DNA of 64,000 nt, taken from NCBI RefSeq assembly GCF_988242995.1, contig NZ_OZ547043.1. One strand, written 5' to 3'. This document shows positions 33,135-51,807 of the stretch, in pieces; the stretch's first letter is position 1, and each line of letters starts with the position of its first letter. The position numbers were made by a program, and so were the translations under genes. The notes beneath the pieces were generated by a model, which was given only the letters and a program-made list of their open reading frames with translations, was not told the DNA's origin and did not search any database.

Positions 33135-35483
33135 ATGCTGAGTTTATACGAAAAGATAAAGATAAGGCTGATAATTTTATTTTTATTGGCAGCACTGTCA
33201 TTTATTGGCCTTTTTTTCATCATTAACTATCAACTGGTATCGGAACGCGCGGTAAAACGTGCCGATAGCCGCTTTGAACTTATTCAGAAAAACGTTGGCT
33301 ATTTCTTTAAAGATATTGAACGTTCGGCCCTGACATTAAAGGACTCACTGTATTTATTAAAAAATACAGAGGAGATTCAACGCGCTGTGATCCTTAAAAT
33401 GGAAATGATGCCATTTTTAGACTCGGTGGGACTGGTACTTGATGATAATAAATATTATCTCTTTTCGCGGAGGGCGAATGATAAAATCGTTGTTTATCAT
33501 CAGGAAGAAGTAAATGGACCGCTTGTCGACGAGTCAGGGCGGGTTATTTTTGCCGATTTTAATCCATCGAAACGACCATGGTCGGTGGCTTCAGATGACT
33601 CTAACAACAGCTGGAATCCGGCCTACAATTGCTTTGATCGTCCGGGTAAAAAATGTATCTCTTTTACGCTACGCATCAACGGCAAAGATCACGATTTGTT
33701 AGCGGTGGATAAAATACATGTCGATTTAAACTGGCGATATCTGAACGAGTATCTTGATCAAATCAGCGCTAATGATGAAGTTCTATTTTTGAAACAAGGC
33801 CATGAGATCATTGCCAAGAATCAACTCGCGCGTGAAAAACTGATTATTTATAATAGCGAAGGTAATTATAATATTATTGATTCTGTCGATACTGAATATA
33901 TTGAAAAAACATCAGCGGTGCCAAACAACGCATTATTCGAAATCTATTTTTATTATCCTGGCGGTAATTTATTGAACGCATCAGATAAACTTTTTTATCT
34001 GCCGTTTGCTTTCATTATTATCGTATTGCTGGTGGTTTATTTAATGACCACTCGTGTGTTCCGTCGGCAATTTTCTGAAATGACCGAGCTGGTTAATACG
34101 CTGGCGTTTTTGCCCGACTCAACGGATCAGATCGAGGCTCTGAAAATTCGCGAAGGCGATGCGAAAGAGATTATCAGCATCAAAAATTCGATCGCGGAAA
34201 TGAAAGATGCTGAAATTGAACGGGCAAATAAATTGCTCTCGCTGATCTCTTACGATCAGGAAAGCGGTTTTATTAAAAATATGGCGATTATTGAGTCCAA
34301 CAATAATCAGTATCTGGCTGTGGGGATCATCAAACTGTGTGGTCTGGAAGCTGTGGAAGCGGTGTTTGGTGTTGATGAACGCAATAAAATCGTCAGGAAA
34401 TTGTGTCAGCGAATTGCCGAGAAATATGCGCAATGCTGCGATATCGTGACATTTAATGCCGATCTCTATTTACTCCTGTGCCGGGAAAATGTACAGACGT
34501 TTACCCGTAAGATAGCGACGGTAAACGATTTTGACAGCAGTTTTGGCTACCGCAATCTGCGCATCCATAAGTCTGCTATTTGTGAACCTTTGCAGGGGGA
34601 AAACGCCTGGAGTTACGCAGAAAAGCTGAAACTGGCGATTTCCAGTATCCGCAACCATATGTTCTCAGAGTTTATTTTCTGTGATGACGCGAAACTCAAC
34701 GAAATAGAAGAGAATATCTGGATTGCGCGTAATATTCGCCATGCAATGGAAATTGGCGAACTATTCCTCGTCTATCAACCGATCGTTGATATTAACACCC
34801 GCGCCATTCTGGGCGCGGAGGCGTTGTGCCGTTGGGTGTCTGCGGAGCGGGGGATCATTTCACCGCTAAAGTTCATTACCATTGCTGAAGATATCGGGTT
34901 TATCAATGAGCTGGGTTATCAGATTATTAAAACGGCAATGGGTGAATTCAGACATTTTAGTCAGCGTGCGTCGCTGAAGGATGATTTCTTACTGCATATT
35001 AATGTTTCGCCCTGGCAGTTAAACGAACCACACTTTCATGAGCGTTTTACCACCATCATGGAAGAAAATGGCCTGAAGGCGAACAGCCTCTGTGTTGAGA
35101 TCACTGAAACCGTGATCGAGCGAATTAATGAACATTTTTATCTCAATATTGAACAACTGCGTAAACAAGGAGTACGGATATCGATTGATGACTTTGGCAC
35201 CGGTTTGTCAAACCTGAAACGTTTTTATGAAATTAATCCAGATAGCATAAAGGTGGACTCACAATTTACCGGCGATATTTTCGGTACTGCGGGAAAAATT
35301 GTGCGCATTATTTTCGATCTGGCACGCTATAACCGGATCCCGGTGATTGCGGAAGGCGTAGAGAGCGAAGACGTTGCGCGCGAATTAATCAAATTAGGAT
35401 GTGTTCAGGCTCAGGGGTATCTGTACCAGAAACCCATGCCGTTCTCCGCCTGGGATAAAAGTGGAAAATTAGTAAAAGAGTAG
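33135..35483 (+). CDS. pdeI: c-di-GMP phosphodiesterase (periplasmic sensor domain, degenerate GGDEF, EAL)
   Basis: Start [15 protein letters not shown]...; EAL-domain motifs near the C-terminus (ELF, DDFGTG); matches YliE/PdeI (782 aa). The track ORF extends 26 codons upstream. Confidence 0.85.
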
Positions 35484-48393: not shown

Positions 48394-48476
48394 AGATCAC
48401 GTCAAAATAAGAAGAGGGAAGACAACATTAGCAAGGTTGTGTACATTTGTACACAATTGCAGAGAGAGGAAATGAC

Positions 48477-49187: not shown

Positions 49188-50873
49188 TTATCCTAATCCT
49201 GGCCATACCATGACGATGATTGTCCCTGCCAGCGTCAGCAGGACGTTGGCGATTGCGTAAGTGCCCGCATAGCCCAGCGCCGGGATATTACTGCGAGCTG
49301 TATCACTGATGATCTCCATTGCCGGCGCGCAGGTGCGTGCGCCCATCATTGCGCCGAACAACAGTGCGCGGTTCATTCGCAATACATAAGCACCGAACAA
49401 GAAGCAGATAACCACTGGCACCAGACTGACAATCAATCCGGCAATCAACATCTGACCGCCAATCGCGCCCAGGCCGTTATTAATACCGCTACCAGCGCTC
49501 AGACCAACGCCTGCCATAAACACCATCAAGCCGAACTCCTTCACCATGCTTAATGCGCCCTGCGGAATGTAACCGAAGGTCGGGTGGTTAGCACGCATAA
49601 AGCCCAGCATAATTCCGGCGAATAACAACCCGGCAGCGTTTCCCATGCCGAAACTGAATGTGCTGAACTGGAAGGTGATCATCCCGATCATCAGCCCAAT
49701 AACAAAGAAGGCGCAGAATGCCAGCAAGTCAGTGACCTGGCTGTGAATCGAGATAAAGCCGATGCGATCGGCGATGGTTTTTACGCGACGGGCATCGCCG
49801 CTGACTTGTAAAACGTCACCTTTGTTAAGCACGACGTTGTCATCAATCGGCATCTCAATCTGGCTACGAATGACGCGGTTAAGGAAGCAACCGTGATCGG
49901 TCAACTTCAGTTGTGCCAGGCGTTTGCCAACAGCGTTATGGTTTTTAACGACCACTTCTTCAGTGACGATACGCATGTCGAGAAGGTCACGATCGAAAAC
50001 TTCTTTGCCATTACGGAAGCTGGGATCGAGTCGGGCGTGGGCGTCGGGGTAGCCTACCAACGCTATTTCATCGCCCATTTGTAGCACGGCATCACCGTCT
50101 GGATTTGCCAGAATCCCGTTACGCCGAATACGTTCAATGTAGCAGCCGGTTTGTCGATAAATACCCAGTTCACGCAGATTTTTGCCGTCGGTCCAGGCTA
50201 CCAGCTCCGGGCCGACGCGGTAGGCGCGGATCACCGGCAAATAAACCTTACGGTTGGCATCTGTGTCCAGGCCACGTTCGCGGGCGATTTGCTGGGCGCT
50301 GGTCTGTAAGTCCTGATGCTGCAATTTCGGCAAGTAACGCGCACCAACAATCAAACTCACCAGACCGATTAAATAGGTTAAGGCATACCCGAGGCTCAGA
50401 TTATCCAGTGCCAGTGAGAGCTGCCTGCTTTCCATGCCGGAATGACGCAGTGTATCGCCAGCACCGACCAAAACCGGTGTTGACGTCATAGAGCCTGCTA
50501 ACATACCGGCCGTCAGGCCAATATCCCAGCCAAACAGCTTACCTAACCCTAAGGCGATCACCAGCGCACTGCCAACCATCACCAGTGCTAACATTAGGTA
50601 ATTTTTCCCATCGCGAAAAAAAATGGAAAAAAAGTTCGGTCCGGCTTCGACCCCGACGCAGAAAATAAACAGCATAAAGCCAAGATTAAGCGCGTCGGTG
50701 TTAATGCTGAAATGTTGTTGGCCTAATAACAGCGATACGACTAAAACGCCAATGGAATTACCCAGTTGGATCGAACCAAGTCGTAATTTCCCGAGACATA
50801 GCCCAAGCGCGAGGACCACAAATAATAACAGAATGTAATTCCCATTTAACAATTCGGCGACGTTTATATTCAC
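49188..50873 (-). CDS. ybjL: Putative transporter with two TrkA-C (RCK C-terminal) domains
   Basis: 561-aa membrane ORF; matches YbjL. Confidence 0.9.
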
Positions 50874-51142
50874 GGAGGCTAACTTCTTGTTTACTAGTAA
50901 GCTGTTGAAAGAAATGGTAATTTACGATAATGTTTTTTACCAGAATTCAGGGCGCAGATTCATTCAGCGCACCTAAACGATAGTAAAGTAACAATATATT
51001 TTACTAGTGTAATCACATTAGGTATCAACGGCTATATGAATTGCGTTGGCCTATATTAGCATGGAATGCGAAGCGGCTTTATCTTACTGAACGCCACACT
51101 GGCGAAAAATGTGTTCGATAGACGCAGTGTCAGGAGGAACGA

Positions 51143-51520
51143 GTGAAACATAAACAACGTTGGGCGGGGGCAATCTGCTGTTTTGTCCTCTTCATTGTGG
51201 TGTGCCTTTTTCTGGCGACGCACATGAAAGGCGCTTTTCGGGCTGCCGGGCATCCTGAAATCGGCTTGCTGTTTTTCATTCTTCCTGGAGCAGTTGCCAG
51301 CTTCTTTTCACAGCGTAGAGAAGTCCTGAAACCTCTGTTTGGCGCAATGCTGGCGGCACCCTGTTCAATGCTTATTATGCGGCTGTTTTTTTCACCGACC
51401 CGCTCATTCTGGCAAGAGCTGGCATGGTTACTAAGCGCGGTGTTCTGGTGTGCGCTGGGGGCACTGTGTTTCTTATTTATCAGTAGTTTGTTTAAACCAC
51501 AGCACAGAAAAAATCAGTAA
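51143..51520 (+). CDS. ybjM: Inner membrane protein
   Basis: 125-aa hydrophobic ORF starting at a GTG with SD AGGAGG; matches YbjM. Confidence 0.85.
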   Translation: MKHKQRWAGAICCFVLFIVVCLFLATHMKGAFRAAGHPEIGLLFFILPGAVASFFSQRREVLKPLFGAMLAAPCSMLIMRLFFSPTRSFWQELAWLLSAVFWCALGALCFLFISSLFKPQHRKNQ

Positions 51521-51549
51521 AGCCCTCAACGCGAGGGCTTGTCAGACGA

Positions 51550-51807
51550 TCAGGCGTCCAGATTTTCTTTCACCCATGCAGCAAAATCGGTATAGCCGCC
51601 GATATGTTGCTGATCGACAAAAATCTGCGGCACGGTTTCTACGGGTTTACCTGCCTTTTGTTGTAGATCTTCTTTAGTGATCCCTTCCGCACGAATATCT
51701 ACATACTGATACTGAAAATCATCGCGTTCATTGCTCAATTTCTCAGCCAGATCTTTTGCACGCACACAGTAAGGGCAACCCGGACGACCAAAAATAACGG
51801 TTTGCAT
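51550..51807 (-). CDS. grxA: Glutaredoxin 1
   Basis: Start MQTVIFGRPGCPYCVRAKDLAEKL (CPYC active site); 85 aa. Confidence 0.95.
   Translation of the reverse strand: MQTVIFGRPGCPYCVRAKDLAEKLSNERDDFQYQYVDIRAEGITKEDLQQKAGKPVETVPQIFVDQQHIGGYTDFAAWVKENLDA

Follow-up and report, generated by a model that had tools for sequence, protein, structure and literature searches.

Two look-alike motifs in the ybjL-ybjM spacer of Escherichia coli: probably separate parts of a crowded promoter region

Several described systems resemble one or another part of the DNA considered here. The operator of TrpR contains CTAG and has the sequence GTACTAGTTAACTAGTAC; its natural half-sites tolerate ACTCGT and ACTGGT. 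The GntR/IdnR-type operator of the LacI family reads ATGTTACCCGTAACAT. RcdA (YbjK) is a TetR-family regulator that recognises the box TTGTnnACA and regulates its own divergent neighbour, ybjJ (PMC3535384). A likeness of another kind is offered by bidirectional promoters, in which the commonest spacing between the two starts is 18 bp (Warman, Grainger and colleagues; PMC12825309).

The DNA studied is a segment of an E. coli K-12-like chromosome, 64 kb in length, which is called the window throughout. A window position equals the MG1655 NC_000913.3 position minus 838946. Transcription starts from Cappable-seq, which are numbered on U00096.2, were brought to NC_000913.3 by adding 777. Two look-alike TTACTAGT motifs lie 110 bp apart between the genes ybjL and ybjM:

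49188-50873, minus strand: ybjL coding sequence, with its GTG start at 50871-50873
50874-51142: ybjL-ybjM spacer, 269 bp
50891-50900: motif 1, TTACTAGTAA, a TTAC-N2-GTAA dyad 18-27 nt upstream of the ybjL GTG
50889-50902: extended dyad of motif 1, GTTTAC-N2-GTAAGC
51001-51012: motif 2, TTACTAGTGTAA, read on the minus strand as TTACACTAGTAA, the -10 core of a ybjL promoter
51143, plus strand: start of ybjM

Among E. coli records, 5420 carry the spacer with an identity of 99% or more, and no annotated feature lies within it. YbjL is an AAE-family transporter that published work implicates in dicarboxylate tolerance. Literature searches on ybjL and ybjM named a regulator for neither gene, and a full-text search with the motif strings returned only cloning primers carrying SpeI sites.

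A sequence-only reading of the window had described TTACTAGTAA as a perfect palindrome and TTACTAGTGTAA as its relative, both between ybjL and ybjM, and had proposed that they may be operator sites. The positions of both motifs, the symmetry of motif 1 and the placement in the spacer all agree with the sequence. The relationship between the motifs does not hold up. Their likeness is found only in Escherichia, their arms are spaced differently (N2 in motif 1 vs N4 in motif 2), and the centre of motif 1 is variable. The explanation preferred here, with a probability of roughly 0.6, is that each motif belongs to a different element of a crowded promoter region and that they do not form an operator pair.

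Comparison with the known operators begins with TrpR. The ACTAGT core is common to the TrpR operator and both motifs, and the half-site tolerance of TrpR resembles the variation at the centre of motif 1. However, each motif has a single ACTAGT core that lacks a partner half-site in the TrpR register, with T/A at the outer G/C positions. The motifs do not contain two GNACT half-sites, whether inverted or as an 8-bp tandem. TrpR was rejected, as its best 18-mer (50883-50900) has 3 mismatches and the window holds 18 matches to its degenerate pattern where 17.2 are expected. The GntR/IdnR operator shares with motif 1, by sequence reading alone, a TTAC-N2-GTAA core with an uncontacted centre, but its flanks are TGTTAC/GTAACA where motif 1 has GTTTAC/GTAAGC, and a link to gluconate genes is absent.

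RcdA, the regulator next door, encoded about 2 kb from the motifs, was rejected as well. Its boxes are confined to 48437-48456, in the ybjJ-rcdA spacer, with none in 50874-51142, and ybjL is absent from the main text of the RcdA paper (PMC3535384). The site at 48437-48456 is the palindromic RcdA operator TTGTGTACAtTTGTACACAA, as published, and is the sole RcdA-box cluster in the window.

Other candidates were judged by inspection of the letters. CRP would have one good half-site only, TGTGA, which is restricted to Escherichia. The repeats that might suit PhoP are 15 bp apart, not 11, and neither CpxR nor OmpR was judged to fit. A σ54 element at GGCATGGAATGCC would have a spacing 2 bp too short. 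The stretch GGCATGGAATGCC itself (51058-51070) recalls a σ54 -24/-12 element and straddles the main ybjM start; other genera keep this stretch as a dyad (TTGGCATGGAATGCC), which is degenerate in the E. coli sequence (TTAGCATGGAATGCG). The right arm of motif 1 is overlapped by TTTCAACAGCTTA, which resembles an IHF core at one mismatch. In Salmonella Typhimurium 14028S, a σE ChIP-seq peak at 943664..943722 has been assigned to 'STM14_1018 (ybjL); ybjM' (PMC4577112). When the spacers of E. coli and S. arizonae were scanned in a simple way for a σE promoter (GAACTT-16-TCTGA/TCAAA), no such pair was found.

The resemblance between the motifs can also be considered statistically. The 9-mer that they share, TTTACTAGT, has 2 copies in the 64 kb, both at these motifs, against an expectation of 0.18; two copies were reached in 2 of 100 shuffles. 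CTAG is about 13-fold depleted in the window (9 observed vs 121.5 expected), and this spacer contains two of those nine. For nine sites placed at random, a pair no more than 110 bp apart has P ~0.12. Perfect 10-bp palindromes number 41 in the window, and 96 pairs of 9-mers are repeated at a distance of 150 bp or less. The sequence TTACNNGTAA occurs twice vs 0.6 expected, its other copy being inside a coding ORF. The resemblance is statistically unremarkable and is weak evidence of function.

Conservation was followed in spacers from 80 Enterobacteriaceae species, whose loci were found with YbjL as the query. The spacers were aligned and described by per-column identity and entropy, and variant counts cover 81 sequences. 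Eleven loci of Yersiniaceae/Erwiniaceae type were added for comparison. Footprinting of this kind had been proposed as a check on the motifs as operators, and it gives a divided answer: motif 1 keeps its arms throughout the family, whereas the TTAC arm of motif 2 and the pairing of the CTAG motifs are not.

Motif 2 is the -10 core of the main σ70 promoter of ybjL, P1. The elements at and near it are as follows:

51006-51011, minus strand: TACACT, -10 hexamer of ybjL P1, at -12..-7 of the Reg-Seq zero and supported by conservation
50998-51003, minus strand: TAAAAT, a further -10-like hexamer restricted to Escherichia, predicted from genomic SELEX
51005-51010, plus strand: TAGTGT, a mirror -10 offset by 1 bp from TACACT, with a start at 51017
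51052-51064, both strands: a second bidirectional -10 region, marked by a Cappable-seq start and a Reg-Seq call
51052-51057, plus strand: TATATT, -10 of the main ybjM start at 51064
51053-51061, minus strand: TGCTAATAT, likely -10 of a ybjL promoter P2

The most direct evidence comes from Reg-Seq (Ireland et al. 2020, eLife, PMC7567609), in which ybjL was mutagenised from -115 to +45 with its zero at MG1655 889945, or window 50999. Because the zero falls there, the published -10 falls on TACACT. In that work the -10 was called at -15..-7, -19..-7 or -20..-7 in LB, zinc, xylose/arabinose and trehalose, and over broader spans in two further conditions; a call at -14..0 is also recorded (PMC7567609). 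These -10 calls map to window 51006-51019, centred on TACACT; the Reg-Seq RNAP index 104 corresponds to -11. Mutations in this -10 lower expression, as recorded by the 'activator, -10' calls of the published supplement (PMC7567609). Genomic SELEX led to the prediction of a ybjL promoter TTGATA-19-TAAAAT (Shimada 2014). From the Reg-Seq calls and the SELEX prediction together, TTACACTAGTAA is seen to consist of the -10 hexamer TACACT, an AG linker and the first bases of the second hexamer, TAAAAT. Motif 2 is thus a promoter core that was already documented.

The hexamer TAAAAT would direct a start near 50992, which would match the RACE start 889938 if the Reg-Seq offset note is read in that way. 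The ybjL start is read as 50999, or as 50992 if the Reg-Seq offset of -7 means a shifted zero. A simple σ70 consensus scan gave no promoter hits in the spacer, the real elements being weaker than its threshold admits.

Across the 80 Enterobacteriaceae, the motif 2 region keeps only TAGT(T/G)TAATC (GATTA(A/C)ACTA on the ybjL strand). The hexamer TA(A/C)ACT is present in nearly all of these species, TAAACT being the counterpart of TACACT in most other genera, and its flanks vary. The base ahead of TAG may be C, T, A or G. This is the behaviour of a σ70 -10 element: a TATAAT-like hexamer with A2 and T6 stands about 7 bp upstream of the start, and the key positions are kept across species while the inner positions of the hexamer vary. 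The TTAC arm of motif 2 is found only in Escherichia, with GC-rich bases in its place in other genera, so the palindromic form of the motif is genus-specific. At the position of TAAAAT, Citrobacter has CCGCAT.

Reg-Seq also gave a repressor-like call at -14..-2 in LB, anaerobic, xylose/arabinose and xanthosine growth (PMC7567609). This footprint corresponds to window 51001-51013, right over motif 2. The published architecture for ybjL is (0,3), with repressor-like sites at -87..-78, -20..-2 and +3..+13, and mass spectrometry yielded no factor (PMC7567609). The site at -87..-78 (window 51077-51086) overlies a conserved CTTTATCTTA block, which is +13..+22 of the ybjM transcript and lies where the -35 of the putative ybjL P2 would be expected.

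The surroundings of motif 2 resemble a bidirectional promoter. As in the published cases (PMC12825309), TAnnnT hexamers are present on both strands, here with a 1-bp offset. A weak Cappable-seq start on the plus strand, U00096.2 889186 (score 1.8), lies at window 51017. The distance to the Reg-Seq zero of the minus strand (50999) is 18 bp, though that strand's start may instead be 50992. The near-symmetry of TAGTGTA suggests that RNA polymerase may also bind in the opposite orientation, and such binding would produce the weak plus-strand start 18 bp away. A second pair of starts in the spacer, 51064 and about 51046, shows the same geometry. There are also differences from the published promoters. 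The plus-strand partner 51017 is weak and serves no gene of its own, the minus-strand start is the Reg-Seq zero and not primary start-site data, and the extra overlapping hexamer TAAAAT is present here, in Escherichia only.

The second bidirectional region contains the main ybjM start, which Cappable-seq places at U00096.2 889233, or window 51064, with a score of 14.3. A Reg-Seq 'activator' call at -65..-53 (PMC7567609) equals window 51052-51064 and coincides with TGCTAATAT, which is likely to be part of a putative second ybjL promoter, P2.

Motif 1 has quite different neighbours. It is a conserved dyad of putative function beside a conserved but weak promoter that faces ybjM:

50871-50935: conserved 65-bp block that includes motif 1, aligned in 80/80 Enterobacteriaceae species
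50871-50888, minus strand: ybjL translation initiation region, SD-like AAGAAG (50883-50888), N9 and the GTG (50871-50873)
50905-50933, plus strand: σ70 promoter, TTGAAA (50905-50910)-17-TAATGT (50928-50933), with a start at 50942
50936-50987, minus strand: ybjL leader hairpin, -21.6 kcal/mol, z -5.6

The plus-strand start at 50942 was detected by Cappable-seq as U00096.2 889111, with a weak score of 2.3. Its promoter is directed at ybjM and converges with ybjL P1, with 57 bp between the two starts, and motif 1 occupies -51..-42 relative to it. In the alignment TTGAA is invariant, TA..GT is present in 79/81 sequences and the first two bases and last T in 80/81, and the inner bases of the -10 vary. 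A promoter had been predicted at this site as TTGAAA-15-GATAAT (Shimada 2014). Relative to ybjL, motif 1 lies at +93..+109 of the leader, the range depending on the choice of start.

The arms of motif 1, TTAC and GTAA, are identical in 78/81 sequences, and the two bases between them differ: TA in 33, CA in 26, GA in 13 and TT in 6. The variants are accordingly TTACTAGTAA (33), TTACCAGTAA (26), TTACGAGTAA (13) and TTACTTGTAA (6), together with TTACCGTTAA (3), in which the dyad is broken. The three TTACCGTTAA sequences are Lelliottia-like, and the dyad is also broken in four Yersiniaceae genera. Arms that are kept around a free centre are the pattern of a dyad operator. Since TTACGAGTAA, with its GA centre, is found in E. 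albertii, E. whittamii and others, and GA is also found in Salmonella, the CTAG of E. coli arises from a substitution at an unconstrained centre. From the alignment, the CTAG of motif 1 reads as a lineage accident, and the conserved feature as TTAC-N2-GTAA. Within Escherichia, CTAG is present at both motifs only in E. coli proper. Several Citrobacter have CTAG at both positions, yet their motif 2 is without the TTAC arm. Given an arm of motif 2 that is confined to Escherichia and a centre of motif 1 that is unconstrained, the shared TTTACTAGT is best taken as a coincidence.

Not all of the conservation around motif 1 need call for a protein. The AAGAAG/GTG region of ybjL is invariant in Enterobacteriaceae, and AGAAG-like purines remain in Yersinia and Erwinia; conservation to the left of the dyad could stem from these translation signals alone. 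The distal arm (GTAA on the plus strand, 50897-50900) is an invariant island amid variable positions. Neither the -35 nor the SD accounts for this island, which points to a protein-binding dyad. As RNA, the motif 1 block is unstructured (-4.3 kcal/mol, z +0.34), and a region comprising the last 60 nt of the leader and 12 nt of coding sequence reached z < -2 in 0/78 distinct leaders. RNA structure therefore does not account for the dyad. A hairpin at motif 1 and sequestration of the SD were both rejected; a 2-nt centre is too short for a loop. Two coding explanations were also rejected. A 20-codon plus-strand ORF at 50914 shows no conservation, and the in-frame triplets upstream of the GTG, through which an N-terminal extension of ybjL would run, include no start codon.

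Binding of a dimeric protein is the most probable single reading of the motif 1 dyad, although its chances fall somewhat short of even. The span mutagenised in Reg-Seq, -115..+45, excludes motif 1, which is near +100, and the palindrome is not discussed in that paper (PMC7567609). No protein or ChIP peak supporting binding at motif 1 was found. No second intergenic copy of the dyad was found in the 64-kb window; the other good matches, at 34499 and 62179, are inside ORFs. The window thus holds no further copies upstream of genes that might be co-regulated.

The dyad could be tied to either of the two genes, and the eleven added loci help to separate them. YbjL is 88-91% identical even in Yersiniaceae and Erwiniaceae, and ybjM has been lost in two independent events, one in Yersinia and one in part of Erwinia, each with a rearrangement of the spacer. 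Loci in which ybjM is lost (L082, L085 and L091) were compared with the others (L083-L084, L086-L090 and L092). In Serratia, Winslowiella, BFo1 and Tenebrionibacter, where ybjM is present, TTAC-TG-GTAA and the TTGAT -35 are both kept. Rahnella, Nissabacter, Chimaeribacter and Rouxiella also have ybjM; they keep the SD-side arm and the -35, and their promoter-side arm is ACAA or GCAA. In Erwinia amylovora and another Erwinia, which have lost ybjM, the homologous stretch reads TTATTGATAA or TTAATGATAA and the -35 is destroyed. In Yersinia, also without ybjM, similarity ends beyond the purine-rich SD. The promoter as a whole is kept as TTGAT(A/G)-17-TAAATT in Serratia and Rahnella and is lost in the taxa without ybjM.

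The dyad thus tracks ybjM, and its decay together with the promoter in taxa without that gene favours a DNA-level role, linked to ybjM transcription, over a role in the ybjL mRNA only. This comparison draws on two independent losses. The altered promoter-side arm in Rahnella, Nissabacter, Chimaeribacter and Rouxiella indicates that the dyad is not essential wherever ybjM is present. Where ybjM is lost, grxA becomes the immediate upstream neighbour of ybjL, with both genes in one orientation.

Both genes have leaders with features of their own. The ybjL hairpin coincides at its base with a mapped RNA 3' end: Term-seq found abundant 'orphan' 3' ends at MG1655 889895/889894, window 50948/50949 (Adams 2021). 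The end is 76 nt upstream of the ybjL ORF and, with a BCM ratio of 0.98, is not Rho-dependent (Adams 2021). Its position points to either attenuation or a short leader RNA some 44-51 nt long. RNAalifold found no consensus structure in the aligned whole ybjL leader. The hairpins differ between genera, and with a median z of -0.8 over 78 leaders they are not generally significant. A SNP seen in adaptation to enrofloxacin, A889923G (window 50977), was fixed in several evolved lines (PMC6458618). This base belongs to the 5' stem of the hairpin in the ybjL leader (roughly +16 to +23 of the mRNA), where the change would replace a U-A pair by a C·A mismatch.

An Rfam scan of 50300-51700 gave no bacterial hits at E < 1, and no structured-RNA or Rfam element covers the motifs. 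A match to UCA1, a human lncRNA family, at 50515-50593 in the ybjL coding sequence is spurious (21.5 bits vs a gathering score of 80). In the Hfq CLASH supplement, the ybjL 5' UTR has no small-RNA hybrids, and those of ybjL are in the coding sequence only. Of these, 55 join the coding segment ATGGTGAAAGAGTTCGGCTTGATGGTGTTTATGGCAGGCGTTGG to CpxQ, a small RNA that derives from the cpxP 3' UTR; the predicted energy is -36.5 kcal/mol. The hybrids point to ybjL as a target of an envelope-stress small RNA.

The 5' leader of ybjM (51064-51142) contains the conserved stretches CTTTATCTGACTGG and GTTCGATAGAG. A small hairpin at 51092-51106 shows compensatory changes, from CGCC/GGCG in E. coli to CGTCC/GGACG in Enterobacter and CGTTCC/GGAACG in one Enterobacter species; it is deleted in Klebsiella. 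The leader has been counted among prematurely terminated, riboswitch-like leaders, and a fragment of it co-precipitates with Hfq (PMC4152368, PMC5089854).

The operator proposal can now be set against these data. A single dimeric regulator bound to both motifs, perhaps with a 110-bp loop that places ybjL and ybjM under joint control, would explain why TTTACTAGT is confined to these two places in a window where CTAG is rare. Such a regulator might also produce the repressor-like footprint over motif 2, and 110 bp would be close to a whole number of helical turns. A common recognition sequence and spacing kept across species would be expected of it, and neither is seen. The likeness is limited to Escherichia, the left arm of motif 2 being GC-rich elsewhere, and even E. 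albertii, E. whittamii and others carry TTACGAGTAA at motif 1. The arms are spaced differently in the two motifs, and chance alone readily yields both 9-mer repeats at short distance and 10-bp palindromes. The loss of pairing across species argues strongly against a shared regulator, and the fact that the ybjL -10 hexamers account fully for motif 2, by the Reg-Seq map and the SELEX prediction, counts against an operator pair as well. An operator pair is therefore highly improbable. One part of the operator proposal survives: given the Reg-Seq footprint and the conserved arms of motif 1, either motif may, separately, be a protein site. For motif 2, this would mean a -10 element that is also the operator of a putative repressor blocking the ybjL promoter, with motif 1 unrelated. 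Reg-Seq reported three repressor-like sites at ybjL, and the -14..-2 call recurs in four growth conditions. However, TACACT is two positions off TATAAT, so up-mutations are expected there anyway. The second hexamer TAAAAT overlaps it, and the mirror promoter competes for polymerase. With a non-consensus -10 and two overlapping polymerase registers, up-mutations over motif 2 can be explained without a repressor, and the bases -6..-1 are not conserved outside Escherichia. A repressor at motif 2 is accordingly unlikely.

For motif 1, the opposite case is that it has no function as DNA. It would then be conserved as an unstructured, A/U-rich region for ybjL translation initiation or standby, and its palindrome would be coincidental, 10-bp palindromes being common. 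Its place 18-27 nt upstream of the GTG, adjoining the SD-like AAGAAG, suits this explanation, as does the lack of structure in E. coli and in all 78 distinct leaders. The SD-side arm with its flank GTAAACAAGAAGTTA is the best conserved part, and it is kept in Rahnella and Nissabacter despite the change in the other arm. Yet the Erwinia homologue decays to TTATTGATAAAAAGAAGTG while ybjL is retained and highly conserved, and the distal GTAA arm is invariant where the SD and the -35 offer no explanation. The lack of small-RNA hybrids at the ybjL 5' UTR also weighs against a role in the mRNA alone, which on balance is rather doubtful. Slightly more credible, though still tentative, is a specific proposal for the dyad as DNA. 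In this proposal GTTTAC-N2-GTAAGC (50889-50902) would be the operator of a putative regulator at the junction of two convergent units. Occupancy of this site would determine how strongly the ybjM-facing promoter fires, and might in addition block or hinder transcription of ybjL and initiation of its translation.

With the motifs as separate parts of a crowded promoter region, the preferred reading, the layout of the spacer is as follows. Motif 2 supplies the -10 core of ybjL P1 through the family-conserved TACACT and, in Escherichia only, TAAAAT. Motif 1 lies in the ybjL 5' UTR, between the ybjL ribosome-binding site and the ybjM-facing promoter with its start at 50942. That promoter fires toward ybjM, head-on against ybjL transcription, and the dyad would belong to its upstream region (-51..-42).

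The ybjL-ybjM locus is mostly ordinary. The value of the analysis is that it averts the mis-annotation of a pair of CTAG palindromes as the signature of a regulon. It also assembles, from scattered public data, a base-level map of the spacer: two promoters for ybjL, two directed at ybjM (one of which lies in the ybjL leader and is convergent), and the leader hairpin together with its mapped RNA 3' end. If the dyad binds a protein, it would provide a handle on the regulation of YbjL and YbjM. If the proposal of an operator between convergent units is true, these two uncharacterised membrane proteins would be expressed reciprocally.
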